DNA of 62,480 nucleotides, filler included, from Hausera hauseri (GCA_046269625.1; 10 parts of 10 records of this genome joined end to end with filler, not necessarily neighbours in it), one strand, 5' to 3'; counted from the whole stretch's first letter, positions 9,867-57,183 are shown. Notes: generated from the letters alone by a model not told the origin. Numbers and translations: made by a program.

Positions 9867-9899
9867 TGAATATGTGATGCAAAAATCAAACTCGGTGCT

Positions 9900-12374: not shown

Positions 12375-12487
12375 AAATTTTCGAAGCAAAAGATCGAGAC
12401 AGATTACGGGCCCAAAGCGGCGGCAACGAAAGCCCGGCCGTGACCGACCAAATGGGCCAAAGAGCACCGGACGCTGTGGGCACCACA
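12375..12487 (-). repeat. TGTGGTGCCCACA terminal repeat copy
   Basis: TGTGGTGCCCACAGCGTCCGGTGCTCTTTGGCCCATTTGGTCGG... aligns with 9390-9495. Confidence 0.75.
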
Positions 12488-22851: not shown

Positions 22852-23412
22852 CATGGATGTATTTATGTATTCCCTTATAATGATTGTACTGGACATTTTT
22901 CGGTTGTCAAAACATTCAAAACGGTCGGTACGCCATTTCCCATGCAGGAATTCGATGGGAAATTATTAGTAACGATCAATGCATCAGTACAACTCATCGA
23001 TTTGACGAAAGATGATTTGCATGTCATTTGTCGATACGATGAGAATATTATTGCATTGTTTCTTAAACGAAAGGATGATTTCATTCTGATCGGTGATTTG
23101 ATGAGATCTGTGACGTTATTGCGATATAAACCGAATGTTGTTCATTTTGAATTGATTGCACAACATCGGGCACCACATTGGACAACAGCCATTGAAATTA
23201 TTGATGATGACAAATTTCTTTTTGATGAAAATAAAATGAATATGTTCGTTGTCAATAGGGATTTTGATATTGCCTCTACGGCAGCTGGTGATGGGGCTAG
23301 ATCAGCTGATGTGCCGATGATGAAGGATGCGCGATTTAAAATGAGTGAATATGCATCAATGCATGTTGGACAGGTTCTCAATAAGTTTATGGCTGGAAAC
23401 ATACTCATGCAA
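22852..23412 (+). pseudogene. DDB1: DDB1 C-terminal beta-propeller fragment
   Basis: MQEFDGKLLVTINASV, NIIALFLKRKDDFILIGDLMRSVTLLRYKP, PHWTTAIEIIDDDKFL, MHVGQVLNKF. Confidence 0.9.
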
Positions 23413-25136
23413 TTTTTACTCGATGAATACTCCATCAAATTAAAAAATTCATCAAATCAAAAACAAAAACTTCAACGGAAAATTGAACAAAAACCAACCA
23501 ATTCTATTCAAGACAAAAAAGTCTTGTCGAGTAAACCGAAATTGATAAAATCCGACGTCTTTGGGAAACAGTCGAGTGTTGGCGTTTCAGAACGATTTTT
23601 CGAATTGGTTGAGCAAATTTGCGAATGGGTTGGTAGTTTGTCCGGAAAGGAATTGGTTGAACGATTGGGCGATAAATGTGGATTGATGACGGAATTATTG
23701 GTGGAAAAAAGTAAATTGTCCAAGTCCTGTAAGATTGATTCATTGAAATTTCATTCTCAAATCGAAAACCCTGTCAACGGACCAGTATTAACCAAACCGA
23801 AGTCAGTCGCAAGTGTTGACAAGTCGTCCGTATTGGATTCACCCGCGAAAATGAATGCAGCAATTCCACCGGAAGTTGACGAAAATGGAGACGTCGAATG
23901 GGAAAACGATGAATTTTTAAATTCATTCGATTTTGTCGAATTCGAAGAGACAGATCTTCATATGCTCAAAGGCAGTAACAATCCAACGAGTACTGTGAAT
24001 TTATTTAAAAATACAAAGCAGAGTGCTGATATGAATGGTGACACGTTTGTGCCAATAACTGAAAAGCAATCGAAATGTACTTCGTCAATAGAAGATTATG
24101 AGTACAATGAACATCCAAACGATGGTGAAACTGGTGAATTCTCTAAAGATTTTCCTCATACTCCGAAAATTATGCAAGCATTTCGAGATGTTTTCGGTTT
24201 AAAAGATTTCCGTCGAAATCAACGGGAAGCAATCAATTCGGCGTTGTTAAAGTTCGATACATTTGCGATAATGCCGACTGTTGGTTGGAGAAGTCTGTGT
24301 TATCAGCTACCGGGCATTGTAACCGATGGTCTCACTGTTGTTATATCAACTTTGAAATCGTTGATTCACGATTAAGTGACCAAACTTCAGAGTTTTGATA
24401 TTAATGCTCGATCAATGACGGTGAGATGTCATTTTCTGAAATAGACAATGTATTTTGTCTATTACAGTCCGTCAAAATGGATGTTAAGTTTTTCTACGTT
24501 ACTCCAGAAAACATTGCAGCATCTCAAAAGTTAATAATTACGTTCGTTTCATTATATAACCGAAATCTTCTCGATCGATTTGTAATAGATGAAACATATT
24601 GCGTCAGCCAATGGGGCCATGATTGTCGGCCAGATTATCGAAATTTAAAATGTCTACGGGAGGAATTCCCCAATGTTCCAATCATCGCATTGACTGCTAC
24701 CGCTACGAATAAAGTTCGTCAAGACATAATTGATTTGATCAATTCGAAATTCCGTGGAGAGAGTAGAATTGTTTACAGTTTGTCACGGAAGGAGTGTGAT
24801 CAAGTGGCACAGGAATCGAACAAAGCTGGTTTGAAAGCAAAATCATATCTCGCCGGTATGGTTGATGGTGCACGATTAAAAGTTCAGCAAATGTGGATAA
24901 ACGAGCAAGATTGCAAAATAGTCTGCACTACAATTACATCTGGCATGGGTACTGATAAAGCGTATGTGAGATTCGTTATCCATTATTCGATCCCGAAATC
25001 TGTCGAGGGATATAACCAGGAAACAGGTCGTGCGGGACGAGACAGACTTCCGGCTGTTTGTATGTTGTACTATTACTACCAGGATGTTACACGAATGCGG
25101 CGTACGATTGAGAGCGATCAAACCGGAAATTGCGAA
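23413..25136 (+). pseudogene. BLM: BLM-type RecQ helicase fragment, inactivated and intronless
   Basis: BDHCT-like FELVEQICEWV, FGLKDFRRNQREAIN, mutated Walker A MPTVGWRSLCYQLP, DETYCVSQWGHDCRPDY, QETGRAGRD. There is an internal deletion after motif III. Confidence 0.9.
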
Positions 25137-25227
25137 TTCCAAAAGTCAGATAGGAAGTATGTTGAAGCCATGAAATGTTATTTGAGAGCATTGAAAATGG
25201 ATAAAGACAACATTCCGATATTGCGCG
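25137..25227 (+). pseudogene. NAA15: NAA15 (NatA auxiliary subunit) TPR fragment
   Basis: QKSDRKYVEAMKCYLRALKMDKDNIPILR versus recalled [29 protein letters not shown]. Confidence 0.75.
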
Positions 25228-25229
25228 GT

Positions 25230-28200
25230 TGGAGGGGAAACTCGGCCACCATTCATTTTGGTTCCAGCCCCGCCGGGGCGGGGATCCCGACGGTCAACCC
25301 TGCGCCGGTCGGTCGGACGGCGCTTATGCGTCGGCTTACATCACGCCCCCAGGCGCACCACTCCTTCCCCTTCTGTTTTCTTTTCCCTCAATAATACCCA
25401 CATTTACACAATCACTACATCACATCCACACATTCTCACCCTTTGTAGCTCCATTTCCTTTTTACTCAATTTTTCCGATTTTTATTTCACCCATAACGGC
25501 GCTATCATACCTCTCACCGGAATCCTACCATCTTTCTCAAGCCACACTTGCCTCCACATACATCTCCGTATCCGTGGTGGCATGAACTCTTCGCCAACCA
25601 TTGACACCACGGATGAAACCACCACAAAACCAATACCTGTTATATTACTCCTAAAACCCACTCCTAACTCTGCTATCAACCTCACAGCCATTACCTCTTC
25701 CGCGCCTTTCCATAACTGCACCGAGTTTTTTAGTGACAAACAAGGCTCCAGCAAAACTTGGTTACAATTTCATCAAATATGGCTACAGGCAAGTAACATT
25801 ACCGACTCTAACTAAAGCACATAATCTTCTCTTCTTATTATCTAATAATATCAAAACGCGCATTCACAACATCGTCGAAATTTTCGAACTTCCAGACCCA
25901 TATTCCCAACTTTCTAACGCAGTTCCTAAGATCACAGAACCTTCCATGGACACGATCAAACAACGTTTCATCCACGACAACGTTATAGGCACCCAACGGA
26001 CATCAGAATTCTCATGCACATTCTTAGCACACCTACATACTCTCGGCGTCACTAAGGAACACAATACAGACCTACTGCGCCACTATTTCCTCAATGCACT
26101 ACCTATCCAAATCCGAGCAATACTTACCGTGGTGGTAGACTCCACACCGCATGAGAAATTAGACGAATTAGTCGATAGGACAGACGATGTCCTACACGTA
26201 AATTCTCCACCAGTTGTTTCAGCAGCAGTTGCCGCTAACGATAATATATCCATAGAACAACAGCTTAATCAGCTACGTGATGAAAATATTGCATTGCATA
26301 AAACAATCAACAATATAAATAATAACTTAAACGAATTGTCTCTGGCCCGCCGAGAGGGTTTTGCCGCTGACCGCACCCGCTCTGCGTCTAGAAACTGCCC
26401 ACCATCGCCTGCGCGTTCGTCGATTTGCTATTACCACAGCAGATTTAATACTAATGCTCAGAAGTGCTGCTAGGGTGCAAATTTTATAACAAGAGTTTTT
26501 CCTCAGACACATTTGTTTGCATTTACCATGCAAGGTTCAAAAATCAGGTTCGTAAATGTATTCCAGGTTGCACTTTCAAATCAAACATAAACGACAGACT
26601 TACTGCCTTTCCTTTTAATAGTCGTCCTAGTTCACCCTTTCAAAAAATCTAAGTTCCCCGCCAGAAGGCGCGGCAAACTCTGGTAATGGCACTACTTAAC
26701 TTTCTGAACGCCGACACGTCTCTTTTGCTGTCTTTACACTAAAGGCTGCAATCACTGCTCCTACAACACAATCTGTTGATTTCCTTATCAATACAGGTTT
26801 AGCAATTTCTTTATTACCACAAACCTTTCGTGCACAAAATTCTCCATTCAAAATCAAACCCTTATACACTGCTTCAGGCCAACCGCTGCACATTTTTGGC
26901 GTGGCTAAATTATCTTTCACATTACCAAATTTTCTTTTACCTTTCCACTGGACGTTCACAGTCGTTAACGTCCAGACTGCAATTCTAGGATCCGACTTTC
27001 TCTCACACTATAATTTATTGGTTGAATGCAGTCAGCGATGTTTGAAAAACGGCAGCACTGGCGATATTTCTGGACATGTCTATAGCATTTCGACTACCGC
27101 GCAGTCGACCAGAACGCGGAGGTCAATCTTAAAAAATTCAATGAATAATTCGATTTTTTATAACAATAATTCCATTTGTAAATTTTAAAATAATAATATT
27201 GATATACGATCGAGGTTCGATGTCGATAATTGTGGTACTGCCACCAACGTTAATTCATTCGACGAAAATACTTTATTTAACACCATTTTCACTTCTACCA
27301 TCTTACACCAAATACCACTTGACTGCACGTCACCCAACAACTCACAAATGGCATCCGCTACTACTCAAGTTGTCTCACTACTTCCACCGAATCTCTCACA
27401 GTTACATACAACTTTACAGCAATTCGTCAACACATCATGTCCACTCGTACTTAAAAAAGACCGTACGTTTACTCCCGCAAACAGTACCTTACACCATATA
27501 GTTACACAGCTTTAACGACCAATACACCAAAAGGTACGATCTCTGTCACCTCGTCGTAGACAGGCCGTAGAAGCCGAATTTCTTGAGCTAGAACTTTCCG
27601 GCATAGTACGACGTTCCAAATCTCCTTGGTCACCTTTACATGTTGTACAAAAAGGACGGTACTTTTAGAGCATGCGGTGACTACCGACAGCTAAACAACT
27701 TTAATATCATGGATGCATACCCTTTAGCACTCATCAAGGATATCTTGCATCGCCTTAATTCAACCACCATCTATTCGACCATTGATTTAGCTAAAGCATA
27801 CCATCAAATACCGGTGGCACCCCAAGACATAGAAAAAACTTCTGTAACTACTCCTTTTGGTCTCTATGAATACCTGTTTATGTCATTCTGTCTGCGAAAT
27901 GCAGCACAAACTTTTCAGCGGCACATTAATTCAATTCTTTCCGATTTCCCATTTGCACACCCTTATATCTATGATATGCTAGTCGTTTCATCTTAGCCCA
28001 AATAACACGAGGAACACCTTTGCGCAGTATTCCAACGTCTTAACCACCATAATCTCAAAATCAATTTCGACAAATGCCATTTTTTTAAAAAGCGCATTAA
28101 CTTTTTAGGCTACGTTATTACACCAGACGGTCATTCGCCCCAATCAGACCGAGTCGAAGCTCTTAAAAATATCCAGTTGCCACGTACAACCATCGAAATG

Positions 28201-29720
28201 CGCAGCTTCCTTGGCACACTACACTTTGTACATAAATATGTACCATATTGCTCCGATTTGACAGCATCATTCGCACACCTAAGCGGCGGCAAAAAACATT
28301 AGTCAATCCAGTGGATACCTCAATTGGTTGACAAATTTGAAAAGCTACGCGAAGGAATCAAAACCGTCAATATCCTAGCTTTCCCCAAGCCTGATGCAAA
28401 ACTTATCCTTACTACAGACCTGTCAACCTCTGCAGTAGGCGCTGTACTCCGAGAGATCTACAAAAGAGAAAATCAACCACTAGAATTTTTCGCTCGCAAG
28501 CTAACAGCACCTGAAACCAGATATTCCACGTTCGATCGTAAACTATTGGCCACCGTTCTCGCTTTAAAGCATTTCTCACATCTACTTGTCGCTCGTCATT
28601 TCACTCTACAAACCGATCACACGCCCTGACCTAACATCATGGCTATGAAACACCCTTCCACTTGCCAAGAACGACAAACATCATACTTATCGACATTTAA
28701 CTTCGATATTAAACATATTAACGGGGTTAACAATTTGGTTGCTGACTTTTTTATCTAGGTCGGTTAGTTCGATTAATTTTTCACCGATCTTTACGCAAGA
28801 CCAACTTCAACAGAACCAGCCGCCTCAGGACATGCTCAATTCTTTTAAATCTTGCACAATCGTTGACGGCGTGGCTTTAGACACCTCAAAACCAGGCCAT
28901 TCCGTAATAATTCTTGCACCATCATTGCAAAGGCAAGCTTTTCACAGCGTGCATTCACTACACCATCCTGGTGCTAAAGCCACTTTCCGTTTACTCCATC
29001 GACAAGTAATATGGCCGTCAATGCGTTCTGATGTGACAGGCATGGGTTAAGGAGTCTGTGGCTTGCCAAAAATACAAAACAACTAAGCATTTAAAGCCAC
29101 TACTATTCCACTTTCCTTGTACATCGCGTTTCGCGTCCGTGTATATCGACATCGTTAGCCTTTTCCTCCAGACAACGGTCATCAATTAATTCTCACCATG
29201 ATGGACCGTTCCTTGCGATGGCCATCCCTCTGCGGAGCACAAACACCGACACTATAGCTGATGTTTTCATTCGCACATGGATTAGCAGGTTTGGATCCCC
29301 TCGTTTCATCATCACCGACCAAGGCCCAAAATTTGAATCCAACCTGTTTAAATCCCTCGTCAATCGTTTGGGGATCCATCATATACATACTACACCTTAC
29401 CACCCACAATCGAACGGCTTACTGGAACGTTTCCACCGTACTTTGAAAACGTCCCTACGAATTCTCGCAGAGTCCAACAGTAGCTGGACCAATCTTCTCC
29501 CATTCGTTCTGCTCGGTTGGCGAAACACCCCATCGACCTCTACAGGATGTTCACCTACTGAGGCACTATTTGGAACTCCCGTTCGCTCTCTATTCGAACT
29601 AACTGCTTTGGACGACACTCCCACGGAAGAGACGATTCGGGCGGCGCAAAATCACTTTGTCGAGGTCAGTAAGGATTCGTTTTGCAGGTTACTGCACAAA
29701 GATAAAACATACTTACCCGA
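25230..29720 (+). mobile_element. CsRN1-like Gypsy copy B: Ubl-gag-PR-RT-RH-IN, degenerate
   Basis: HIHLRIRGGMN (GG at 25576-25581), two CxxHx9Cx3C knuckles, ILGSDFL, RACGDYRQLN, YSTFDRKLLA, TTPYHPQSNGLLERFHR. Confidence 0.95.
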
Positions 29721-34731: not shown

Positions 34732-35595
34732 TTTCTTTACAGCTTTAGGGATCAATTGGGCAGCAATGCTGCGCTATACTGGTATTAGGCTGCAGATCAT
34801 TAAGGATTATGATGATTTTTATAATCGAGAGAGGCATTAGAGGTAGAATATGCCAGGCCATTCATCGGTATAGCGAGGCCAACAACAAGTATATGACCCA
34901 GTATGATCTATTTAAGGAATCCTCATATATATCATACATGGATGTTAACAACTTGTATGGATATGCAATGAGCGCCCCATTGCCATACGATAACTTCAAA
35001 TGGTCGAGAATACTGAAAACATCCCTATAATGGACTGGATCCCATTGGAGATACGGTCTGTATACTGGAGTAAATATGGAATATCCGGCTTCTATCCACA
35101 CACGGCATCAACAGCTGCCTTTCCCCCCTAAGAGCAGGCCTCCGTCCCATGGAAGGCATAGAAAGCTGCTCTAGAAAGCTGCATAGAAAGCTATACAACA
35201 ACCGTGTTTTTGGCAAGACAATGGAAAATATCCGCAATAGGATCAACATTGAGCTAGTATGAGACTGGAGGCAGGCAAAGAAACTCATTGTCAAGCCCAA
35301 CTACCACAGCAGCACTATATATGCGAAGAACTTGGTAAGCATCCATATGCTGAAAACAGCAGTTGTATTCATTGGCAATATTAAATCTATCAAAATCTCT
35401 AATGCATCAATTCCATTATGACATTATGGTCCCCAAGTTCAAATCCATGCAGACGATGTATATGGATATTGATAGTTTCATCTATCAGATCAATACAGGG
35501 GATATTTATGATGACTTTGCCAAATTGACTCAACATGTGGATACCACGGAGTATCCGAAGGAACATCCCAACTATTCAATAACAAAGTCCTAGGG
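34732..35595 (+). pseudogene. polB: pPolB family 1 fragment, cut at 35595 by a TGTGG repeat
   Basis: IERGIRGRI, YMDVNNLYGYAMS, YMDIDSFIY, YPKEHPNYSI. Similar to 13800-14700. Confidence 0.92.
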
Positions 35596-35697
35596 TGTGG
35601 TGTCCACATCGGCTAATGCCCTTTGGCTCATTTGGTCTGGCACAGCCGGGCATCCGCTGTCGCAACGTCGGGCCTATAGGTGGACCATGATCTTCCA
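35596..35697 (+). repeat. TGTGGTGTCCACA terminal repeat copy
   Basis: Aligns with 9390-9495 and 12375-12487 (GCCCTTTGGC.CA.TTGGT...CACAGCCGG.CATCCG). Confidence 0.75.
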
Positions 35698-36501
35698 AGT
35701 ATAGGATTCAAGCAAAGAAAACGAAACAGACAAAATCAACACGAATTGGTGACTTTGATTGCTCTGCCGCGTATTACACCATTGCTAACCTATTAACTAC
35801 TATTGTCAGTCGTTGTAAAATTATCATCCATTCCATTCTTCAATTTCAGTTATCGGTTTCGACTGCTACGGCATATAATTACATATTGATGCCGAAATGC
35901 ATGTCCCGATTATTGCTGAGTCATCACCCTACTTGCATCATTGACAATTCATCTAGCAAGTCCATTTATAATTCGTCGGATTTTGTGACACAAAAATCGG
36001 CGTGTCGAGACAAGACAAATATGGATGTGAGTAATCATACCAACAACAACAATAATAATCATAATGGCAACGATCGTTCTGTTGTTCCATCATCGTTACC
36101 CACCGATTTCCTGGTGAATTGTGATCTGTGCATCGGTTTGGAAATTTTACAATCGATTACTTAAATCAACCTTTTCGTGCATTAAAATCGTATTTACATG
36201 TCTAATGAGCGCAAGTCTTTTTTAAGTCTAAGTTCGCTAATGATAATGATGCTTCATGTCATGGTTACCAGTCATGCTCTTCGAGACTTCCAATATCGAT
36301 TTGGCATGACTCCGATAGTACTATCAATTTTACTGGTTTTGTTGACTCAGGAAGTAATTGGTCAGCATCCGTGGCAATATATTGGTATTATAATCGGCTG
36401 GGTATGTCAACAATGCCGGATCATGTCGTTCCTGCTAAGTATTTCGCCCTACTTCCAATTCCACAGGGATCACAGAGCAGTATAATAACGATATTTGCAA
36501 T

Positions 36502-36830
36502 TTGGAAGACGATGGTGGGCACATCGTTACTCAGCGTTCCGTGGTACTAAAGTCGGCTGATAATATTCCAGTGGAACGAGGGATGACAAAAATGACCTTA
36601 GATTGTACAGATGCATGCCGATGTCATTTGGGCAAGTGGGCTAAATTAGTGGCAAAATTTTTTTCGTTTTTAGCACTTTTCGGTGCTTTAATTGTATTTT
36701 ATGTGCTACTTTGCGACTTCTTGCATTCTGTTTTTGGTTATATTTACGATTTTAGCATGAACAATATTCATACGGGTAATTTTGGATCATTGTTTAATAG
36801 ATCGTTTGATTATGTAATTTGTACAAGCAT
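36502..36830 (+). pseudogene. SLC38A9: SLC38A9-like amino acid transporter fragment
   Basis: VLKS..DCTDACRCHLGKWAKLVAKFFSFLALFGALIVFYVLLCDFLHSVFGYIYDF. Confidence 0.7.
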
Positions 36831-37135
36831 GCCGTCCTTTCCAACACACAACGCTTTCTATGAATTTTTTTTGAAGAATTGATTCCGTCAGACTATGATA
36901 TTAATTCTGTGATAGTTGTTTTAATAAGTCAATTAAATGTTTACACTTTGAAATTCTCAACCATATTACTTCAAAGATTATTGAAATTGTTTTTAATTCG
37001 TTATTTTGATCTCACGATTTGGATTTTGCTAAACAATTTACAGTTAACGTTGAGGTTTTAAGAGTGATCGCCTCCATTTTCGAAATTGAATTTTGATTAT
37101 CCGATTAGAACTTCAGGCTGTTTTAGATTTTCTGA

Positions 37136-37540
37136 ATGAACTACAAATTTTATTTGATGATACCGCTTAATTATTCGAAAGATGGAAGTTGTATCGATGG
37201 TATTTACGACGAATTTGCTGACTACGTTGAAGAGCGAGCAGACAACGAATACCATTTTCAGTGTAAATATGGAAAACTGCCAGGTATAGCATTTGCTCAC
37301 CGGTTTGAGAAATTCGAAGAACGATTTTTAATTCATTTGGAATACGCAGTAATTGTCGTGACTCCTAAGTCGGAAAGGGCCATGTTCAGATTTCTGCCGC
37401 AATTATTGATGTTTTTATCCACGCGGGGTATTTGGAAAAATCGGTTCATTTTTATTGTTCTTGGAAATGAAAGAATCGGCGAAAGTCTCGTTTACCGTCT
37501 GCCGATTCGGTTTTCGTTGGATAATTGGAACTTAAAATAG
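37136..37540 (+). CDS. Open 134-aa ORF, divergent TIR-like domain
   Basis: Alternating beta/alpha pattern: FYLMI..YSKD, LPGIAF (BB-loop-like PG), AVIVVTP, NRFIFIVL. Confidence 0.4.
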   Translation: MNYKFYLMIPLNYSKDGSCIDGIYDEFADYVEERADNEYHFQCKYGKLPGIAFAHRFEKFEERFLIHLEYAVIVVTPKSERAMFRFLPQLLMFLSTRGIWKNRFIFIVLGNERIGESLVYRLPIRFSLDNWNLK

Positions 37541-37619
37541 TGTCAGAAATGCACAAATTTTGTCACGAAGGTAACATTTTTTTCTAACATTGGTAATATT
37601 GTGAATTTTAAAACTGCTA

Positions 37620-38330
37620 CAAAATACGACAATATTGTGCGACTCCAACAAACTGTACATATCATTATCGCTACCCCAGGAAGGGTTCATGACCTAATTA
37701 GGAGACATTATTTCTACGATTTATAATTTTCAAAGCGTTCTACATTTCATAATAAGCAAATTCCCAAATCATCGTCAAATTATCCTCCACTCTGCTACGT
37801 TTCCACACACTGTACTGTCATTTCTAAGAAAGCACATGAAGAATCCTCATGAAATCAATTGAATGGACGAATTGGCATTGAAAGGCATTACACAATAGTA
37901 CGCCTATGTGCAAGAAAGACCAAGGCTTTACTGCTTAAATACGCTCTTTTCTAGATTGCAGATTAATCAGTCAATTATTTTTTGTAATACAGCCCAAAGA
38001 GTTGAATTATTGGCAAAGAAAATAACAGATCTCGGTTACTTGTGTTATTATATTCATGCAAAATGAATCAAGTTTACCGAAACCGAGTTTTCCACGAATT
38101 TCTTAATGGAAACTGCAGAAATTTGGTTTGTACTGATTTATTTACTCGAGGTATTGACATACTGTCAGTTAACATTGCGATAAATTTTGATTTTTCCAAA
38201 TATGCTAAAATATCTACAGAATTGGTCAATCTGGTTGTTTTCGGCACCTCGGTATTGCGATAAATTTAATAATGTACGATAATAGATGTTCATCAAAGAG
38301 CATTAAAACCCAACTCAATACGCAATTTGA
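37620..38330 (+). pseudogene. DDX6: DDX6/Me31B/Dhh1 DEAD-box helicase fragment
   Basis: [77 protein letters not shown]. Confidence 0.93.
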
Positions 38331-38339
38331 ATCCAACCA

Positions 38340-38703
38340 AAATCTTATCCCTTCAATCAACGCATTAGCCAATGTTTCAAAATGGCGTGTCCGATTAGCA
38401 TTTATACAAACCCCTCTTTTTTTAACTGGTTTGTTAAGCCTTCAAGTTTTTTCTGAAGATAAATTAACGACGTTATGTCTAAGTTGGCTTGCCGATCCAG
38501 TTTACGCTCTTAGAGAGGCTGCCACCAATAACTATGTTTTAACAAAGATAGTCAATATGTCACGCGGTCACAACCACCTGCACAGGATGATTTGTCTTCA
38601 CACTACACAAAATCTATCTGAAATTTTGACGCAAAAAATGATTCAGATACATTCTCTCTCAATGTTGAAGACATTGGTCCCTGGTAATGTTCTCAATATT
38701 CGG
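38340..38703 (+). pseudogene. PPP2R1A: PP2A scaffold A subunit HEAT-repeat fragment
   Basis: KWRVRLA, DKLTTLCLSWLADPVYALREAATNN, NHLHRM. Confidence 0.88.
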
Positions 38704-38794
38704 CTTAAGAGCGAATTATCGAGAAAGCACATCATCTACCTTGATGATGTTGACAATTCTCAGTCACACTTCATCACACCTTGGGTGAGAAATT

Positions 38795-41700
38795 CAGTTA
38801 CTCAGAAATTTGAAACTCGCCGAGGTGAGACTGAGGTCCCGGCCGTCCACCCTTCACCATAGGGTCAGACGGCGCCGTTCTTTGCCGCGCCACGACACGC
38901 CCACAGCCACACGACCAATCCTTATCTCCTTTTCTTTTTTCTCAACAACAGACACATTTGCACACATACAGTAGTACATGTAAACGCAGCTGTCATCCAT
39001 AACATCATTTCCACTTCTCTTCACTCCTCTGATTTCTATCTCACACAATGGATTCGTAGTGCCTTTCGCTGGACTCCTCCAACCTTTCACAACTTGTGTC
39101 TGCCTTCACATTTACTTCCGTATCCGTGATGGCATGGATTCACCACACACAACTGATACCACGGACAAACCCACCAAACCAGAGATCTCCATCACTTACT
39201 TACCCAAACAAAGTGCTTCAAACATTTTGACACAACACACTCCTCATTCATTCACCCTGCACAGAATACTTCCTCTACAGCCAAAACTCTACTCAGACGT
39301 GGCTAAAACTGCATCAATTCTGGCTCCAATCATAAAACGTCGTCGACTTTTTATTCAAAGCCAACAACATTTTTTTTGTTTACCAGCTTCCATCAAAACT
39401 AAAATTACCAACATCATCGACATCCTTCATCACACCGAACCATATACTCAACTTTGTAATGCTGCTGTTAAGCTCACTGAGCCGCCAATCGACTCAGTCA
39501 TTCAAAGACTCTTCAACGACTACGCTATGGGCCTACAGAAACCTTCTGAATTCTTGCGTACACCTTTGTCTTACCTCAAAACCCTTAGCGTAACATCTGA
39601 GCATAGTCCAGAAGTTCTTTGTCGCTATTTTTTAAATGCACTGCCCCTTCAAATAAGAGCTTTGCTTACTGTGGTGGAAGACTTCACGGCAATGTAAAAG
39701 CTAGCTAAACTGGCGGACAAGGCCTATGAAGTACTGCACCCACATACAGCACCAACTACCTCTGCGGCACTAACAACAGAACAACAACAACAAAATACAA
39801 TGCTTCAGCAACAAATTGCGCAATTACGCTCGAAAAATGAAATGTTACAAAAGACAATTAACTACATAAATGAGAAATTAAATGAGTTAACGCTGCCTCG
39901 ATGCGGTTTTTCTAGGGCTGCTTCCCCCAATGTATTTCATCAACGGTTGCCTTCGCCGGCGCGTTCATCTATCTGCTACTACCATAACAAATTTGATAAT
40001 AATGCTCAGAAATGCTGCATCGGTTGTAAATTTTACTCCCCCGGTTTTAACACAAATAACATTGTTTGCATCTATCATTCGAAATTTGGCACAAAAGCAC
40101 AAAAATGCCTACCTGGCTGTAACTACAACACACAATAAAACCAACACTACTATGCTCACACAAAACAGTAGGTCAGACTCACCAGCTACAAAAAACTGAT
40201 TTCGCCGCTAGGACACACGGCAAGTCCTAGCAAAGACAACAACCTGCAAAAAGATAGCCGATACATTTCTTTTGCTATATTCACGTTGGAAGCAGCAGTC
40301 GTCACTCCAATAAAGCAAAACATTAACTTTCTTATAGACACCGGCGCAGCAATCTCTTTACTGCCACCAACACAACATATCCAAAACAATTTCACTTCAA
40401 AATGCAACTGTTCACTGCGTCCGGTGAACCTTTACAAATTTTTGGTGTTACCAAATTAACGTTCATTCTTCCACATTTCCCAAATAAATTCACTTGGAAA
40501 TTTACAATAGCCAATGTACGCACACCTATATTGGGTTCAGATTTTCTGTCCCACTACAATTTACTTGTAGATTGCAAACGATGTTTTTAAAGAGCGGAAA
40601 TAATCTTAATCAAATTGGCGGCATTTCGGTGACCACCCGAGCGATAGCTTCCAACAAGTCAATACTGAAGCAAACGACTTCCGATTTAAATTATTTTTAT
40701 AATAATACATTATAGAAAAATTTTTACTACGGTAACAAATACGATATTGCAACTGCGTGGCACATATTACTGATAGCACAGCTGCCAACACCATCTTTAA
40801 CACGAACATCCTGCACCAAATACCACCTAGTCACAACACCTTGTCTACAACTCATACCTCAACTGCATCCAGTCACGATGCATCGACACCATCGGATAAC
40901 TTTTCATCGTTGCCTTCTGATCTACAGCAATATATTTCGTCTTCCTACACGCGTCTGTTGCAGAAGGACAAATCATTCGTACAACCTCAATCCACCTTCC
41001 ATCACATCGTAACAGCATATCAAAGACCAATGCGGTAAAAGGTCCGCCCGCTATCGCTTCACCACAGACAGGCACTGGAGGCTGAGTTCCTCGACCTTGA
41101 AAAATCAGGCATAATCAGAAGATCCAAATCCCCCTGCTTTTCACTGCTGCATGTGGTTCCAAAAAAGATGGCACCTTTCGCCCATGCGGTGATTACCGCC
41201 AACTCAACATCATAACAACAATAGATGCCTACCTTCTACTATTAATCAACGATATGCTTCACAGGCTCTATGGTGCGACCATTTTCTCCTGCATTGATTT
41301 ACACAAAGTATACCACAAAATTCCGAGGACCCCATCAGACATTCGGAAAATGGCTGTCATTACACCTTTTGGCCTTTTGGAGTACATTTTCATGCCTTTT
41401 GGACTCTGTAGAGCTTTCCAGATCTTCCAAAGCCATAGTAATACAGTTCTCTCAGGTTTAGACTTTGCTTATTCCTATATTGCTAGTATCCTAATTGCAT
41501 CATCTTCCTCGAAACAACACTCCGAACACTTACGTCTAATCTTCCAACGCTTGCACCAAAACAATTTGCAAATTAATTGCGCCAAATTCTCTTTTTTCAA
41601 CATAAGGTCAACTTTCAAGGACATGTTATTACCTCCTCCGGACATTCACCTCAGCCAGAGCGCATCACACAGCTGAAAAAAATACAACTACCACGTACAT

Positions 41701-47622: not shown

Positions 47623-49110
47623 TTTAGATTGTTGCCTATGCTAGAACTTGCCGTATCCTAGCGGTGAAATCAATTTTTTGTAGTTGGTGAGTTAGGCCTA
47701 CTATTTTGTGTGAGCTTAATAGTGTTGGCTTTATTATGTGTGTTGTAGTTGCAAGCAGGTAGGCATTTTTGTGCCTTTGTTCCAAATTTTGCGTGATAGA
47801 TGCAAACGATGTTACTTGTGTTAAAATCGGGGGTATAAAATTTACAACCGATGCAACATTTCTGAGAATTGTTGCCAAATTTGCTGTGATAGTAACATAT
47901 AGACGACCGCGCGGGCGAAAGCGACCGTCTTTGTCGTTGACGAAATATATCAGGGGAAGCAGCCCTAGAAAAACTTTGTCGAGGCAAAGTTAATTCATTT
48001 AATTTCTCATTTATATTATTAATTGTTTTTTGCAACATTTTGTTTTCTGTGCGTAATTGCGAAATTTTTGCTGTAGCATTGCATTTTGTTGTTGGTAGTT
48101 TGTTGTTAATTCCACAGAGACAGTTGGTGCTGTGTGTGATTGCAGCACTTCATAGGTTTTGTCCGCCAGTTCGGCTAACTTTTCCAGTGCCGTGTAGTCC
48201 TCGATCACAGTGAGCAAAGGTCTTATTTGAAGGGGCAATGCATTTAAAAAGTAACGACGAATTTCTGGACTATGCTCAGATGTTATGCCAAGGGTATTAA
48301 AGTGAGACAAAGATGTGCGAAAGAACTCAGACAGTTTCTGAAGGCCCATGGCGTTGTCATTGAAGAACTTTTGAATGATAGAATCGATTGACGGCTCAGT
48401 AAGCTTAAGAACGGCATTATAAAGTTGAGCATATGGATCGATGTGGTGAAGGATGTCAATGATATTCGTAATTTTGGTTTTGGTAGAAGTAGGTAAATGG
48501 AAAAACAGGTTGTTGGCTTTGTATAAGGGGTCCACGACGTTTTGTGATTGGAGCTAGAATTGGTGCAGTTTTAACCATGTTTGGGTAGAATTTTGGCTGT
48601 CGAGAAAGTATTCTGTGCAGGATGAATGAGTGGGGAGTGCGTGATGTACTTTGAAGCACTTTGTTTTGGTAGGTAAGTGATGGAGATCGGTGGTTTGGTG
48701 GCTTTTTCCGTGGTGTCTATGATGGGAGAGGAATTCATGCCACCACGGACACGGGGGTGAACATGAATAATGAAGGAAGACTGTGTTGAAGAAAAGAAAT
48801 CGGCAAGACTGTAGAGTATGAAGCCGTGATGACTGAGGAAAAATTCGTTTGTTTGTCGTAGTGCAGACATGATTGTACAATTGGATTATTTTGGTGTGTT
48901 GTGTTATTTCGTATGTTGTGGCATGTTCATTATTTAGAAGGAAAACGGAGAAAGTGGGTGTCTGATAGTCGGGAGTGTAATGCGGGACGAGTACATGGCC
49001 AATCGCCTCTCTCCCCTGCATGGGAACATAGACCGGGTGCACGGTATCCCGGGGACGGGGCCGCAATTTGCGGGAAGGGCCGCACTCGTCGCCGAATTTG
49101 GTCGGGCGGC
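47623..49110 (-). mobile_element. gag: CsRN1-like Gypsy copy D: Ubl-gag (truncated by contig end)
   Basis: IHVHPRVRGGMNSSP (GG at 48739-48744), double CHCC knuckle, AAAAAAT slippery site. Confidence 0.92.
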
Positions 49111-49779
49111 TGTTGACCGGCTCTACAGGTTTCGTTTTGGATGGTACAATTGAAGCGTTAACGTCTTTAGGGAAAATGAAACATCGATATTGCGGCCTGT
49201 ATATTCGATACCACCTTCCACTACCGATTGTATTGTCAAAATTATCTGGGTGATGTAACAAATTTCGATGATTCTTGTTGCTATTACACTGACTAAAATC
49301 GTTTGTTTGTAGTTTAAACTGCTGCGTGTTATCGTCGTTACAGTTAAGTGTCTCCAAGCGACTCTGAAGATCGTAAGATTCAATGTCAGGTAAATCTGAT
49401 ATAGGCTTAGCAGGGTTGATGTGATTTCTTCTATTGTGTATCATATGGGAATAGTGTGACAAGTCGTCCAAGATGTGATACTCAGTCAATGAACAAAAAT
49501 CAAGCGGATGTGCAAAACGCAAATGAAGTGTCGGCCTATCCAAAGTTTTATCAACGAAAAATGGTCAGTGGTTGACACACGTTTGATAACAGACCGGTAG
49601 CAAAAATAAAATATCATTAGTAGAAAAAATAGATAATAATGCGAAATCATCAAAACTTACAACAACCACACTGTCACAAAAAAAATATTGTGATGGTTTG
49701 TACTGTCAGGAAAAGAAACGTCTGATGATGCTGAGCTTGGCGTGCAAAGTATTTTCTGACACCAATGTTGTTCCGATTT

Positions 49780-50330
49780 GTATTCGAGATGCGTCGATTC
49801 AAAGCAAGCATATGCAAGACTGGCGTCGACATTTTCAACTTTCATCGGACACCACTCGGAATTGTATTCAACTTTGATGATCTAGCCGACTTTCAATCGC
49901 AATACTGGTCGTTCGGGATAACTGTCCAGATATCCTTTGGCAAACTCCTGGGATTCGGCATTCATGCTTTCCCAATTGTCGAGATTTTGCTGAAACACGA
50001 GGTAGACTTTGTCTTGGAAAGAGTACTGCACATAACCGTCAACGAAGAACACCAGGTACCGATAACTATCACGACTGTTTGGTGGTTCAGCAACGTTACC
50101 GTGAAAGTAAACAACGTTGCCGCTATCATCAGCATATATTGACACAACTCGAGTTCTGACTGGATAGCTTTTGCCAAAGGTCAACGCACTTTTACCAGCA
50201 GCCACTTGATATCGAGTCATGTTTGTCAAAATATGACAAACTAGGGAGTCAAATTTTTTAATATTCATTTCCAAAGCATTTAACTCAATGTGGAATTGAT
50301 AGAATCCACTGTTATTAATATCCTGCATAA
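49780..50330 (-). pseudogene. SETDB1: SETDB1/eggless tandem-Tudor fragment
   Basis: TRVVSIY..YFHGNVAEPPN..RYLVFFVDGYVQY..YLDSYPERPVLRLKVG..KVENVDASL. Confidence 0.85.
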
Positions 50331-50929: not shown

Positions 50930-51076
50930 CACTTTTCAGCACCCCACGACCACCAAACAAAACCCGGGGAAAAGGGAGGCGTTCGGTCCCGGACATGCGC
51001 GCCGCCCGGGGAACAACAAGCCCCCGATCAGGTCTGGCCAGGTGGCAAACCATGTGGGCACCACATCATCCCCGAG
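50930..51076 (-). repeat. PPT-like CTCGGGGATGA followed by LTR start TGTGGTGCCCACA (51065)
   Basis: It lies downstream of copy E integrase in the canonical PPT/TG arrangement. The LTR end was not located. Confidence 0.65.
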
Positions 51077-54000
51077 GCTGAGTTGAAGTACTGTAAAGCA
51101 CGACAAAAGGAGAAGCAGAAGCGCGAAAGGGTGAAGGTATATTTAAAAGTGGACTGTTTCAAGGCATTCAGTTCCTTGTTAGTATTTTACTCTGCAATAT
51201 ATGTTGAATCCTACTGTTTTGCTTGCTCGTATACGTAGTTTGTTTGTTGGCAGCTGATTTTGTGTAAAACCGATGTTGGTTCTTGGATTGTGTTGGGTGA
51301 AGGTAGAAGTGAAGAAGTAAAATGTGTCAAAGGATGATGGGACGATGGATTAGAGGTATTAGAGTTTGAGAGCGGCGAAAGTTGCGAAGTGGAATTGAGA
51401 GGAGTAGAAGATGGTGTGTTACGAAGAAGGAAGAAAGAGGGCGCCGGAGATGACGAAGGTGTGGAAGGAGAAAGAGGTAGAGAGAGGGGACGCTGGAGAG
51501 GGGCAAGACGGAAGAGAGTAAGAAGATGAAGAAGGTAAAGGAGAGGAGTTGGAAGGTGACATGCAAGAGGTTGGAATGATGAAAGGCGTAAATGGAGAGA
51601 TTGGTGAAGTAGAAGTGGTGATTGGCGGAGAAAGTCTCGTAGGTTAGGAATGCAGGTTGTCACCAGTGGATGAAGAAGGTGTTAAGAGGCTTGAAAGTGC
51701 AGAATCGGATAGGGAAAAAGGGGATGAACTGTCAGAAAAATATGAAGTAGAAGGATTGAGAGAAAACGTAGGGGTAAGTGGATTAAATGAGTGAACAGAA
51801 ATAGGGGGTGAATTTTTGGATTGCTGCGCGTCGTGTAAAGATGTTGGTGGAGAAATGGTCTCGATGGGGGACGTATCGTCAACGAAGAAGGCCAGCTTAG
51901 CGTTGTTGATGTGGACTGGCACTTTGTCGTCCTTGAAGATGATGATGTTGTGGGAGTGTGATTCTTTAGCCATACAAACTTAGCAGTATACAAATCGTCG
52001 GGTATGGTGGGCTTATTTCCGTGTAACAGTCTACAAAATTAGTCTTTGCTGATCGCAACAAAGTGTCTCTGGACCGCTTGTATGATTTCGTATGCAGGAA
52101 TATTACCCAGCTCAGCCAGCTCGAATAATGGTCTGATAGAAGTACCAAATAATGCTTCTGCAAGTGAACAGCCTGTAGAAATATATGGTATGTTCCGCCA
52201 GCCAAGCAGAACGTTCGGAAGGAGTGTGGTCCAACTGCGATTGGACTCAGCAAGGATTTTAAGAGACGTTTTCATCGTTTGTTGGGAGCGTTCGAGAAGG
52301 CCATTCGATAGAGGATGATAGGGTGAGGTGTGTCTATGGTTAATTCCGAATAGATTGACAAGAGCTTTAAACAAGTTGGATTCAAACTGTGGGCTTTGGT
52401 CCGAGATGATGTGGCGAGGTGATCCAAACCTGCTGATCCAAGTGTGGATGAAAACGTCTGCGATTGTTTGTGTTGGGGCTCCGAAGCCGGACAGCCTCTG
52501 GCCATCGCGGGGCACGGTCCATCATAGTGAGGATGAACTGATGGCAGTTGTCCATGGGTAGTGGGCCTACAAGTCAATGTGAACCGATTCAAAGTGAGAC
52601 GTGCAGGGAAAATGATATAATGGTGGCTTTAAATGCTTAGTAACTTTGTATGTTAGCATGACACACACTGCCTAATCCATGCCTGCACGTCAGAGCGCAT
52701 CGACGGCCATACTACTTGGTGTTGTAAGAGTCGAAAGGTGTCCTTTGACCGGGATGATGCAACGAATGGATGTTGTTGAATTCTTCTTTCTGAAGCGATT
52801 CGTAAAAGTTTGGAGGTCTCAAAGGCCACACCGTCGATGGTTTTGCACGATTTAAAAGATTTAAGGATGTCAGGAGGTGGCTAGTTTTGTTGAAGTTTGG
52901 ATAGAGGAAAAATTGGTGTGAAATCAATCGACCTGACCGATCGGGACAAAAAGTCAGCTACCAAATTGTCGACTCCGTTTAAGTGCTTAATTTCAAAATT
53001 ATGTGGACAAATACGATATTTGCCTCTCCTGACGTGGAGAAGGCTATTCCATGGTAAGAATTTGAAGCAAAGGCTTGTGGTCCGTTTGTATTGTAAAGGT
53101 TCGTGCGGTTAGCAGATGCTTAAAGTGTTTTACGGCAAGGACCATTGCAAGAAACTCTCGGTCAAAGGTGGAATATCTTTGCTCTTGTGCCGTAAATTTT
53201 CGATAAAAGAATTCTAATGGCTCATGGGATCCATTTTTGACTTGATAGAGAACAGCACCTGCAGCTGTTATGGATGCATCCGTAGTTAAGAAGAGTTCTG
53301 CATGGGAGTCGGAATAGGCCAGGATTTCCACGGTTTGTAGGTTATCTTTGAGGTGATCGAAAGCGTTGACTAGTTTGGCGGTCCACTGAATAGGCTGTTT
53401 TTTCCTGCCAGAGCTTAGTGATGCAAATGGAGCGGTTAGAGTGGAGCAGTGTGGAACATACTTATGAATAAAGTGCAAGGTTCCGAGGAAAGAACGCATC
53501 TCTGTGGATGTGCGTGGTTGTTGTATGGTTTTGACCTGTGTGATGCGGTCTGGCTGAAGTGAATGTCCTGAGGAGCTAATAACGTGTCCTAGGAAGTTGA
53601 CCTTATGTTGAAAAAGGAGCATTTGGCGAAATTAATTAGCAAATTGTTTTGGTGCAAGCGCTGGAAGATTAGACGTAAGTGTTCGGAGTGCTGTTTCGAG
53701 GAAGATGATGCAATTAGTATATCATCAATATAGAGATAAGCAAAGTCTAAACCTGAGAGAATTGTATCAATATACCTATGGAAGGTCTGAGAAGCGCTAC
53801 GGAGTCCAAAAGGCATGCAAAAGTATTCGAAAGGGCCGAAAGGTGAAATGACAGCCATTTTCGGAATGTCTGCTGGGGCCAACGGAATTTGGTGGTATGC
53901 TTTGTGTAAATCAATGCAGGAAAAATGGTCGAGCCATAAAGCCTGTGAAGGATATCGTTGATTAATGGTAGAGGGTAGGCATCCATTGTTGTTATGATGT

Positions 54001-56410
54001 TGAGTTGGCGGTAATTACCGCATGGGCGAAAGGTACTATCTTTTTTGGAACCTCATGCAGTGGTAAAGACCACGGAGATTTGGATCTTCTGATTATTCCT
54101 GATCTTTCCAGTTTGAGAAACTCAGCTTCTACTGCCTGTCTGCGACGAGGCGATAGCGGGCGGACCTTTTGACATATTGGTCTTTGATGTGCTGTTACTA
54201 TGTGATGGAAGGTGGATTGAGGTGTTACGAATAATTTGTCCTTTTGCAATTGATGCGTGCAGAAAGATGAGATATATTGCTGTAAGTCAGAGGGCAACGA
54301 TGAAAAAATTATCAGGCGGTGTCGATGCATCGTAACTGGATGCAGTTGACGTATGAGTTGTAGACAAGGTGTTGTGACAAGGTGGTATTTGGTGCAGGAT
54401 GTTTGTGTTGAACATGGTGTTGGCAGCTGTAGTATCAGTAATAGGTACTACGCAGTTGGCAATATTGTATTTGTTGCCGTAATAAAAATTTCTGTATAAT
54501 GAATGATTTTAAAAATAATTTAAATCAGAAGTCGTTTTCTTTAGTATTGACTTGCTGGAAACGATCACCCGAGTGGTTACCGAAATGCTGCTAATTTGAT
54601 TAAAATTATTTCCGCTCTTAAAGGAACATCGTTTGCAGTCTACAAGTAAATTATAGTGTGACAAAAAGTCTGAACCCAATATAGGTGTGCGTACATTGGC
54701 TACTGTAAATTTCCAGGTGAATGTGTTTGGAAAATTTGGAAGAGTAAAGGTTAATTTAGTAACACCAAAAGTTTGTAAAGGTTCACCGGACGCAGTGAAC
54801 AGTTGCTTTTTTGAAGTGAAATCGTTTTGAGTGTGCTGTGTTGGTGGTAGCAAAGATATTGCTGCGCCGGTGTCTATGACAAAGTTAATGTTTTGCTTTG
54901 TAGGAGTGACGACTGCCGCTTCCAACGTGAATGCAGCAAAAGAAATGTGTCGGCTATCGTTTTGTAGGTTGTTGCCTTTGCTAGAACTTACCGTGTGTCC
55001 TAGCTGCAAAATCAGTTTTTTGTAGCTAATGAGTTTGGCCTACCATTTTGTGTGGGTTTAAGTGTTGATTTTATTGTGCATGTTGTAGTTACAGTCAGGT
55101 AAGCATTTTTGTGCTTTTGTTCCAAATTTTGAGTAATAGATGCAAACGATGTTGCTTGTATTAAAATCGGGGAAGTAAAATTTACAACCAATGCAGCATT
55201 TCTGAGCATTATTGTCGAATTTGTTATGGTAGTAGCAAATAGACGATCGCGCGGGCGAAGGCGACCGTCTTTATCGTTGACTAAATACATTAGGGGAAGA
55301 AGCCCTAGAAAAATCCCCTCGAGGCAGCGTTAATTCATTTAATTTCTCGTTTATGTTATTAATTGTTTTATGCAACATTTCGCAATTTGTTGATGCAGCA
55401 CTGCATTTTGTTGTTGTTGGTTTGTTGTTAATGTCGCAGAGACAGTGGGTATTGTGTATGAGTGCAATACTTCATAGGCTTTGTCCGCCAGCTTGGCTAG
55501 CTTTTCCAGCGCCGTGGAGTCCTCAACCACAGTTAGCAAAGCTATTATTTGAAGGGGCAATGCATTTAAAAAGTAACGACGCAGAAGTTCTGGACTAAGC
55601 TCAGATGTTACGCAAAGGGTATTGATGTAAGACAAAGATGTGCGCAAGAATTCAGAAGGCTTCTGAAGGCCCATGGCGTTGTCGCTGAAGAACCCTTTGA
55701 ATGATAGAGTCGATTGATGGCTCAGTGAGCTTAAAAACAGCATTAAAAGTTGAGCATATGGATTGGCGTGCTGAAGGATGTCAATGATGTTTGATTTTTG
55801 CTTTGATGGAAGCAGGTAAATGAAAAAATAGGCTGTTGGCTTTAGATAAGGGGTTGACAAAGTTTTGTGATTGGAGCCAGAATTGATAAAGTTTCAACCA
55901 TGTTTGAGTGGAGTTTTGGCTATCCACGAAATATTCTGTGCAGGGTGAATGAGTGGAGAGTGTGTCCTGTGTCGGGGTGTTTGAAGCACTTTGTTTGGGT
56001 AAGTGATAGAAATCGGTGGTTTGGTGGGTTTGTTCGTGGTATCAATAGTGGGTGATAAATTCATGCCACCACGGACGCGGAAGTGTATGTAAAGACAGAT
56101 GTTAGATGACGAAGATTGCAGAGTTCCAACGAGAGGTACCGTGAAGCCGTCATGTGCGAGATAAAAGTCAGGTGAGCGAAGGAAAGTGGAGATGAAGTTA
56201 TAGATTGCCGTAGTGTTCAAATGTGTTACTGCATTTGTGCCAATATGTCTATTGTTTAGGAAAAGGAATGAGATAAAAAGAGGTCGTGTGGCCGGGGGCG
56301 TGTCGTGGGGCGGTAACGAACGGTGCCGTCTGACCCAATGGTACAGGATGTGCGGCCGAGGCTTCAGTCTCGCCGTGACGAGCCTCAAACTGCGGGGTAG
56401 CCGAGGTCCC
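51066..56410 (-). mobile_element. CsRN1-like Gypsy copy E, complete internal region (Ubl-gag, frameshift, PR, RT YIDD, RH, IN, Ser/Pro tail)
   Basis: YIHFRVRGGMN (GG at 56065-56070), FVIDTGAAIS, AYLYIDDILIAS, TDAS, TSPYHPLSNGLLER. Many frameshifts. Confidence 0.95.
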
Positions 56411-56419
56411 CGCTTTTTT

Positions 56420-57175: not shown

Positions 57176-57183
57176 GGAGCGCT

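Follow-up and report, generated by a model that had tools for sequence, protein, structure and literature searches.

Pack-MULEs, which carry variable multi-gene cargo between conserved ends, are DNA transposons with inverted termini that are mostly non-autonomous and whose cargo may keep introns; we know of no frame constraint that acts on them. Deubiquitinases cut ubiquitin fusions after GG, and the ubiquitin insert of bovine viral diarrhoea virus (BVDV) acts as a host-cleaved processing signal. In cytopathic BVDV, the polyprotein contains mosaic inserts of host RNA, and a viral protein is immediately preceded by ubiquitin or a ubiquitin-like sequence (PMC13517609). In long terminal repeat (LTR)-mediated retrocopies (Tan et al. 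2016, PMC5131818) and in maize Bs1 (PMC13317346), an LTR element carries partial host messenger RNAs (mRNAs), several genes per chimera, and template switching has been proposed; the cargo replaces part of the internal open reading frames (ORFs) and the product is non-autonomous. The Drosophila telomeric elements with nxf2, piwi and aub are autonomous retroelements carrying host pieces, including silencing genes (PMC13534243). Bivalve Steamer elements have short LTRs (153-219 nucleotides, nt) starting TGTAACA, followed directly by the 12-nt tRNA-Leu primer site TGGTGTCAGAAG, with no cargo mentioned in the available part of the report (PMC8905726), and the CsRn1 clade (CsRn1, PwRn1, AgCR) is recognized by a CHCC Gag signature and a tRNA-Trp primer site (PMC2582038). 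Here we describe an element in contig 7 (34732-42646) of a 62,480-nt stretch of Hausera hauseri DNA (GCA_046269625.1; the window), which consists of ten contigs of 4-10 kb each with N linkers between them. In this element and its relatives, host gene fragments, all oriented with the element, precede a ubiquitin-like domain (Ubl) fused to Gag, the joins that can be read firmly are in frame, and relatives with the same order of parts exist as unbroken single frames.

By its sequence, the contig 7 element is a decayed CsRn1-like Ty3/gypsy LTR retrotransposon copy. It shares with the CsRn1 clade the CHCC Gag signature, the gypsy domain order and separate gag and pol frames, with weak DUF7041 similarity (E 0.012-0.029), and differs from the clade as described (PMC2582038) in its two CHCC motifs, its N-terminal Ubl, an apparently LTR-started first frame and its host cargo. 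Because its primer-site-like 12-mer is of the tRNA-Leu rather than the tRNA-Trp type, we call it CsRn1-like and not a member. With Steamer it shares the primer site (PMC8905726). Unlike the retrocopies and Bs1, it keeps gag-pol, and its cargo, which varies by copy, lies at set positions upstream and downstream of the primer site and shares a reading frame with Ubl-Gag. Unlike BVDV, an RNA virus in which such events are sporadic and ubiquitin is itself the insert, the element has a fixed, ancient Ubl before which other cargo changes. The telomeric elements are non-LTR, involve few target genes and have no in-frame Ubl-Gag fusion reported in the part of the source available (PMC13534243). Unlike a Pack-MULE, finally, the element encodes a reverse transcriptase (RT) and begins with an LTR start.

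Host cargo and its orientation

Self-comparison of the window revealed five related gag(-pol) copies, A (contig 2), B (contig 5), C (contig 7), and D and E (both contig 9). Copies A, C, D and E are mutually 78-85% identical and copy B about 65%, and all five are broken by stops and frameshifts. Pfam found RVT_1, RT_RNaseH, Integrase_H2C2 and rve in gypsy order in copies B, C and E, which keep gag and pol downstream of the cargo, and in L001, which like L002 is a more distant relative from Joint Genome Institute (JGI) metagenomes, assembled as a circle. A protease motif can be read near 40340 in copy C, and the CHCC signature (CX2HX9CX3C) has six matches in the window, in copies B, C, D and E. 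Contig 1 holds a separate, unrelated gypsy pol (800-4039, minus strand; Integrase_H2C2 and rve).

The cargo of copy C contains SLC38A9 in two pieces (E 8.5e-6 and 4.6e-6), DDX6 (E 5e-45, with 108 residues gap-free; Pfam DEAD/Helicase_C) and PP2A-A (E 1e-20). A reading of the sequence alone had named these three genes and a TIR-like piece; the three names are borne out by search matches, whereas the TIR-like frame was recognized from language-model features and has no Pfam match. Run X1, in which roughly half of the contig 7 words occur and which may derive from the same sample as the window, holds a second copy of 35773-36306, about 88% identical; run X2 comes from a separate study.

The other arrays differ in content. 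As had been proposed, contig 5 carries DDB1 (CPSF_A in Pfam), BLM and NAA15 (31 residues, E 2e-7) before copy B, and contig 3 carries Piezo (Piezo TM1-24 in Pfam) after the repeat at 12487, itself recovered by BLASTN. In contig 2, the repeat at 9495, the pogo-type DDE_1 piece and Ubl-gag were recovered, but the TTC27 piece has no Pfam match and the TDRD12 piece none in PDB, Atlas or Pfam; tools confirmed neither label, although both look plausible. In contig 9, the SETDB1-type Tudor pair, copy D and the 51065 motif stand, but the name TDRD12 is again without tool support and the motif expected at 57412 is absent by BLASTN and by a pattern search allowing one mismatch. The named genes, together with the pogo-type transposase, indicate an invertebrate animal as the source.

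The co-orientation of the cargo with the element, also claimed before, was examined by running Pfam on all ORFs of at least 38 amino acids (aa) on both strands of six 5' regions; the PDB searches covered the sense ORFs. Six distinct genes were named among 122 sense ORFs (DDX6, DDE_1, Piezo, DDB1, RecQ/BLM and SETDB1), and none of the 111 antisense ORFs exceeded the curated cut-off (two matched at E 0.007-0.009). Aligned to orthologues, the cargo stretches (including PP2A-A, BLM and DDX6) show deletions and no long insertions. A joint in run contigs inside DDX6 (37714 to 38104) was unreadable as an intron. Copy D has a candidate intron (49660-49536, minus strand) between its primer site and Ubl, outside the named cargo, with a GTAAGT donor about 100 nt after the primer site followed by 125 nt without AG; it is phase-compatible with the frames on both sides, and may represent either a leader intron belonging to the element or an intron kept from a host gene. 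Copy C likewise has a stretch of 183 nt without AG, beginning at 36027 (plus strand).

These data bear on whether the pieces were taken up as DNA, by break repair with ectopic genomic or existing retrocopy DNA as proposed for Pack-type elements, and later selected for frame. The capture of a DNA transposase (DDE_1), the candidate intron of copy D and a cargo comparison made with orthologues rather than parent genes leave room for such uptake; all six Pfam-named genes are on the sense strand, however, with no antisense match, and the aligned coding stretches lack long insertions. Frame selection alone would also give a strand bias. Taken together, we regard DNA-level uptake as improbable.

The cargo common to copies A and E has no codon-position bias (p 0.96) and is 81.6% identical, versus 86% in the gag and 89% in the pol of copies C and E, where the bias is weak (p 0.008 and 0.03). 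This pattern would fit cargo whose amino acids were immaterial but whose frame mattered.

In-frame joins and unbroken relatives

All five joins that can be read firmly are in frame (DDX6 to PP2A-A, DDB1 to BLM, BLM to NAA15, PP2A-A to linker and NAA15 to linker), for which the chance expectation is 1/243. In copy C, one frame of 217 codons spans the end of DDX6, PP2A-A and the linker, and the linker-Ubl frame that follows is in the same phase. Three softer joins agree: the TIR-like frame to DDX6 across the primer site, SETDB1 to the primer site, and the shared cargo to the linker in copy E. The joins to Ubl-Gag point to a translational constraint on the sequence placed before it.

Relatives outside the window retain this layout intact. 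HMMER search with the Ubl region of copy B returned three proteins, one of low complexity, P0003 and P0004; the low-complexity match P0002, a repetitive newt protein, was dropped. P0003 consists of a short leader, Ubl and Gag, and P0004 is an unbroken 996-aa fusion of a DIS3-family CSD1 (cold-shock domain), CNOT1, Ubl and Gag. P0005, from a different contig than P0004, has the same layout in 1051 aa, and P0006, like these two an ENA entry, joins CARM1 (residues 136-398, E 4e-80) to Ubl and Gag in an unbroken 900 aa. Further protein searches added P0008/P0009 and P0007. The last, an ENA protein in which a bacterial DUF5777 beta-barrel is joined to mid-Gag, was dropped as most likely a misassembly; because it shows that chimeric assemblies of this family occur, single relative records need care. 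Each of P0003-P0009 has one or two CHCC matches. G-V-R-S/K, which is the primer site in another frame, occurs once in each of P0004, P0005 and P0006, right after the first host piece, as judged from protein alone. A homologue search with a frameshifted window ORF as query gave no match, and locus scans were empty for P0003 in metagenome contigs, for the Gag alignment in viral and prokaryote contigs, and for the window pol in viral contigs.

In L002 the Ubl-Gag frame stays open for 270 codons before Ubl in 70% AT DNA (P about 4e-9), and in L001 for 102 codons (P about 2e-4). In both, the first AUG of this frame lies upstream of the primer site and the frame crosses it; P0011 is an unbroken 617-aa version of this LTR-initiated form. 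No host piece can be recognised in these three forms, so a frame initiated in the LTR looks ancestral, with capture added later. The LTR-encoded N-terminal part of L002 (1306-1473) contains an in-frame internal direct repeat of about 90 nt with 80% identity.

The Ubl ends in diglycine at the fusion to Gag in four of the five window copies, in L001 and L002, and in six of the seven proteins P0003-P0009 (P0007 being without the region). The Ubl of L002 matches Pfam ubiquitin at E 4e-20 and that of L001 at E 7e-5, and HHalign aligned the profile of the window-family Ubls, which also included the contig 8 Ubl, with that of the relatives (88.8% probability, E 2.5e-6, 47 columns). The structure models were poor, with predicted local distance difference test (pLDDT) scores of 35.3 and 46.8, the latter for a window Ubl. 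Two further elements of the window deserve mention here. A different retroelement in contig 8 (43370-44753, minus strand) has a Ubl (Pfam ubiquitin E 3.5e-4, ending LQGG) before a Gag-like frame and then CCCH zinc fingers; this Gag, which has no Pfam match, is presumably BEL/Pao-like. Upstream of the element, the same strand has further stretches that look coding (46320-47006, 229 codons). A third element in contig 6 (29821-34631, minus strand), broken in several places, has a weak ubiquitin-like stretch (E 0.048) followed by a Monjiviricetes-type fusion glycoprotein (E 1e-28), upstream of protease/RT-like frames. Ubl-Gag fusions may have more than one origin in this genome.

Could the arrays be assembly chimeras of transcripts or repeats? 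The contigs are short and repeat-rich, P0007 is a likely misassembly, and the E-LTR-D junction of contig 9 may be a collapsed repeat. Against this, the cargo is as decayed as the element; an exact X1 contig (38596-38938) bridges PP2A-A and the linker, albeit in a run that may be the window's own sample, and an X2 contig, from the other study, bridges DDX6 and PP2A-A (38294-38501) with 26 differences in 208 letters (87.5% identity). No single contig of X1 or X2 covers the whole copy C array. P0004 and P0005 come from two contigs, and unrelated assemblies have their joins at matching structural positions, so that we give chimeric assembly hardly any credence. The summed contig depths, 25-180 for the cargo and 3,000-70,000 for gag-pol, are not copy numbers and were not used.

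The choice of genes bears on another explanation, in which the capture route is the same but the cargo is kept as RNA, seeding PIWI-interacting RNAs or small interfering RNAs that target the host's genes for silencing and RNA decay, as has been demonstrated or suggested for the Drosophila telomeric elements. SLC38A9, PP2A-A, Piezo, NAA15, DDB1, BLM, CARM1 and the transposase look instead like a sample of abundant transcripts, the cargo differs in each copy, and small-RNA action needs no in-frame joins. We consider it very improbable as the reason for the cargo, although it is compatible with the explanation we prefer below; by analogy with the telomeric elements, capture of silencing genes is possible as a side function.

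The LTR start and a probable primer-binding site

The TGTGG repeat noted earlier at 35596 proved to be shared: BLASTN matched it to 9495 and 12487 (both minus strand) with 76-81% identity across 80-114 nt, and more loosely to 51065 (minus strand). In all four sites the similarity begins precisely at TG; the flanks are unrelated, with no invariant position among the 16 columns compared there. The 51065 motif comes immediately after the pol end (integrase tail) of copy E and a polypurine tract, and L001 and L002 likewise have the order pol end, purine tract, TGTG; an LTR beginning TG right after a polypurine tract is thus found at all three. We interpret the motif as the LTR start because of this position. 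The 51065 motif, previously assigned to the 5' end of copy D, is an LTR start but not solely that of copy D, since it adjoins the pol end of copy E. An exact X1 contig begins at 35710, just past the copy C motif.

On its 5' side, copy C is flanked by a very high-copy repeat (summed depth 233,260 in X1) whose match to contig 3 (13818-14683) stops at 35586, so the insertion end at the TG of copy C is clean. This flank (34732-35595) is presumably a protein-primed polB of Polinton type; it has no Pfam or PHROG match. Three 5' LTR starts lie in or near very high-copy repeat (34732-35595, 9500-10318, 12900-15000, and contigs 4 and 10), which presumably is Polinton-like (polB, integrase), and contigs 4 and 10 have 4 kb in common at 82-85% identity. 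Target preference or shared heterochromatin is a possible reason for this proximity. The idea that the LTR start is coding sequence was dropped, as the conserved LTR start has no codon bias, and a solo-LTR test of contig 3 found no target-site duplication.

In L001 and L002, the sequence TGGTGTCAGAAG, whose tRNA-Leu assignment comes from the Steamer report (PMC8905726), lies at 363 or 685 nt past the LTR start, inside the Ubl-Gag frame. Each of the three window copies possessing an LTR start as well as gag (C, A and D) carries this 12-mer on the sense strand with at most two mismatches (shuffle rates 0.08, 0.11 and 0.08, jointly about 7e-4). The copy C 12-mer lies 1942 nt past TG, between the TIR-like frame and DDX6, and its first codon is a stop in the frame common to both; that of copy A separates the transposase piece from the remaining cargo; and that of copy D directly abuts the end of the SETDB1 piece, with a second, weaker match at 49854. 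No tRNA gene ending in the primer-site sequence was found in 54 viral loci or in the window. The GC-rich linker had been considered as the primer site and was dropped after the relatives revealed the actual one.

With the LTR start defined by the motif and the primer-site-like 12-mer in mid-array, some of the cargo appears to lie within the LTR, namely SLC38A9 and the TIR-like piece in copy C, the transposase piece in copy A and SETDB1 in copy D; on the simplest reading, DDX6, PP2A-A and the remaining cargo lie in the leader. In the LTR between copies E and D (50630-50750, minus strand), TATAAA and AATAAA occur 323 and 418 nt past TG, upstream of the SETDB1 piece, which would put the SETDB1 cargo in U5; the 5' region of copy C has neither hexamer. 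The sequence-only reading had described a variable 1-4 kb 5' cargo region. The variable host pieces are there, but they do not appear to form one internal region, as the 12-mer divides three of the arrays. Contig 8 has a TGTGG-type start (47035, plus strand) with a 10/12 primer-site match 222 nt on (47257), on the strand opposite to the contig 8 element, which either arose by chance or marks the 5' end of a further LTR, AT-rich as in L001 and L002.

A short LTR, of about the 113-nt motif, would place all of the cargo in the 5' internal region after capture at the RNA level, with the mid-array 12-mers being chance or remnants and the frame irrelevant. The similarity between copies does end about 113 nt past TG, the 12-mers of copies A and C are imperfect with no preceding CA, and published LTR-mediated retrocopies are internal (PMC5131818). 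However, in contigs 2, 3 and 7 the motif is followed by neither a conserved CA end nor a primer-site match, whereas the 12-mer occurs once per array in all three copies, in canonical context in copy D, and the primer site of the relatives lies 363 and 685 nt past the LTR start within the Gag frame. Such a structure also does not predict in-frame joins, and we think it unlikely.

Table 1. Coordinates of the element copies, their cargo and their LTR features in the window.
Feature	Position	Strand	Basis
Copy A, LTR start motif	9383..9495	-	BLASTN, alignment
Copy A, pogo-type DDE_1 fragment, upstream of the primer-site-like 12-mer	8455..8784	-	Pfam
Copy A, primer-site-like 12-mer, 10/12, identical to that of copy C	7755..7766	-	pattern match
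Copy A, cargo common to copy E (56430-57180); TDRD12 name unconfirmed	5290..6010	-	
Copy A, Ubl (RGG at 4932-4946) and Gag	4140..5140	-	sequence reading
Contig 3, LTR start motif	12376..12487	-	BLASTN, alignment
Contig 3, Piezo fragment after the motif; no primer site or gag in the contig	11825..12064	-	Pfam
Copy B, 596-codon open frame, DDB1 (residues 89-278) and BLM (520-596)	22585..24372	+	Pfam, search
Copy B, 329-codon open frame, BLM, NAA15, linker	24405..25391	+	
Copy B, Ubl (RGG at 25567-25581), Gag, pol	25342..29720	+	pol domain matches
Copy C, 5' flank, very high-copy repeat interrupted at TG	34732..35595	+	BLASTN, depth
Copy C, 5' LTR start, conserved TGTGG motif, about 113 nt	35596..35708	+	BLASTN, alignment
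Copy C, 157-codon open frame with Asn-rich tract (cargo, or 5' part of the SLC38A9 piece), no Pfam family	35691..36161	+	
Copy C, SLC38A9 fragment, two frames, internal deletion	36410..36825	+	
Copy C, TIR-like open frame, ending at the primer-site-like 12-mer	37136..37537	+	language-model features 0.92, a lead
Copy C, primer-site-like 12-mer, 10/12	37538..37549	+	pattern match
Copy C, DDX6 fragment, several frameshifts, one deletion, no long insertion	37580..38331	+	Pfam, alignment
Copy C, PP2A-A fragment, in frame with DDX6 end and linker	38332..38742	+	
Copy C, conserved GC-rich linker (the leader of the sequence-only reading), in phase with Ubl	38780..38920	+	
Copy C, Ubl directly before Gag, ends RDG (RGG in the four other window copies)	38920..39133	+	
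Copy C, Gag, two CHCC motifs (39974, 40067), broken	39134..40140	+	motif search
Copy C, pol: RT, RNase H, integrase zinc finger; broken, truncated by contig end	40200..42646	+	domain matches
Copy D, SETDB1-type Tudor pair (Tudor_5/Tudor_4), lying between the LTR start and the primer site	49792..50166	-	Pfam
Copy D, primer site, 11/12, after CAACA and one base, in phase with the SETDB1 frame	49753..49764	-	
Copy D, long frame into Ubl (RGG at 48739-48753) and Gag	47623..49564	-	frame reading
Copy E, polypurine tract, then LTR start at 51065 (3' LTR of E and 5' LTR of D, or collapsed assembly)	50955..51080	-	
Copy E, shared cargo, linker, Ubl (RGG at 56065-56079), Gag, pol up to integrase tail	51200..57180	-	

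A proposed route of capture and its meaning

Capture through RNA is, in our judgment, quite likely. Template switching onto co-packaged mRNA, the published mechanism for LTR-mediated retrocopies (PMC5131818), was also the route suggested by the sequence-only reading, and it remains the best supported, given the co-oriented pieces in independent copies and in relatives from other assemblies, although that reading treated the cargo as one 5' internal region and missed the in-frame joining. Host mRNAs would be packaged in the particle and the reverse transcriptase would switch onto them; a switch during minus strong-stop synthesis would give the pieces upstream of the primer site, which become LTR, and a later switch in minus-strand synthesis those between the primer site and Ubl. 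Repeated rounds would build mosaics that differ by copy while gag-pol is kept. The ribosome would start at an AUG in the LTR, now often supplied by captured mRNA, so that only captures that keep the frame open would still yield Gag and spread. A host deubiquitinase would then cut after GG and free Gag with a fixed N-terminus, and the amino-acid content of the cargo would therefore be immaterial. The whole of this, template-switch capture, translation from the LTR, frame selection and cleavage after Ubl, we favour with moderate confidence.

A further-reaching reading, which we offer tentatively, is that the LTR is a replaceable protein-coding cassette into which, together with the leader, the 5' parts of host mRNAs are routinely copied, supplying the start codon. 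The fixed Ubl would make the element indifferent to its cargo and thus an autonomous, frame-selecting exon shuffler, and the two other Ubl-Gag retroelements would be convergent. If the LTR is such a cassette, the tRNA-Leu primer perhaps starts in some copies on primer-site-like sequence in host mRNA, and this cryptic priming would explain why the sites of copies A and C are imperfect and have no adjacent CA.

Several points weigh against template-switch capture with frame selection and with cargo in the LTR. At least five joins are unreadable for frame and were left out of the count (motif to first piece, 157-codon frame to SLC38A9, SLC38A9 to the TIR-like frame, and both ends of the unnamed pieces in copy A). 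The protein searches detect in-frame fusions only, and so show that the intact layout exists and not how frequent it is; P0003, P0008/9 and P0011 are without a recognisable host piece. Window-wide, the eight 12-mer matches against 4.8 expected are not significant by themselves, and copies B and E and contig 3 have no match. The 12-mers of copies A and C match at 10 of 12 positions, with one mismatch in the first three bases and no CA directly before them; those of L001 and L002 are likewise without an adjacent CA. As no copy has both LTRs, the placement of cargo in the LTR relies on the LTR start and the primer site, and the presumed 3' LTR of copy E (SETDB1) has no comparable 5' LTR and differs from that of its sister copy A. 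With the candidate intron of copy D, some sequence there may be unspliced. The codon-bias test has low power (gag of A and E, p 0.24). Neither of the two window Ubls tested matches Pfam, and the Ubl of copy C ends RDG.

By analogy, the nearest functional parallel would be the ubiquitin inserts before NS3 in cytopathic BVDV (PMC13517609). LTR-mediated capture is known, and the cargo-Ubl-Gag layout, with its plausible enabling device, looks new. In the literature available to us, mainly outside subscription papers and Repbase-type descriptions, where such elements may be described, we found no natural ubiquitin-Gag retrotransposon and no host coding sequence in an LTR in frame with Gag; a natural ubiquitin-Gag fusion as a built-in processing signal seems undescribed.

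Gene capture by LTR elements is normally rare and crippling, and here it looks routine, with gag-pol kept. The resulting in-frame chimeras of conserved genes are long, reaching 596 codons in the window and about 620 residues in a relative, and cargo-bearing copies will be mis-annotated as host genes. If the cargo lies in the LTR, such chimeras would be repeated at both ends of each insertion and in solo LTRs. If the proposed route is true, the arrays would be a record of the mRNAs that entered the particle and would test how much R homology and LTR-end sequence is needed for strand transfer and integration, and the family would readily supply chimeric genes as well as small RNAs directed at host genes.

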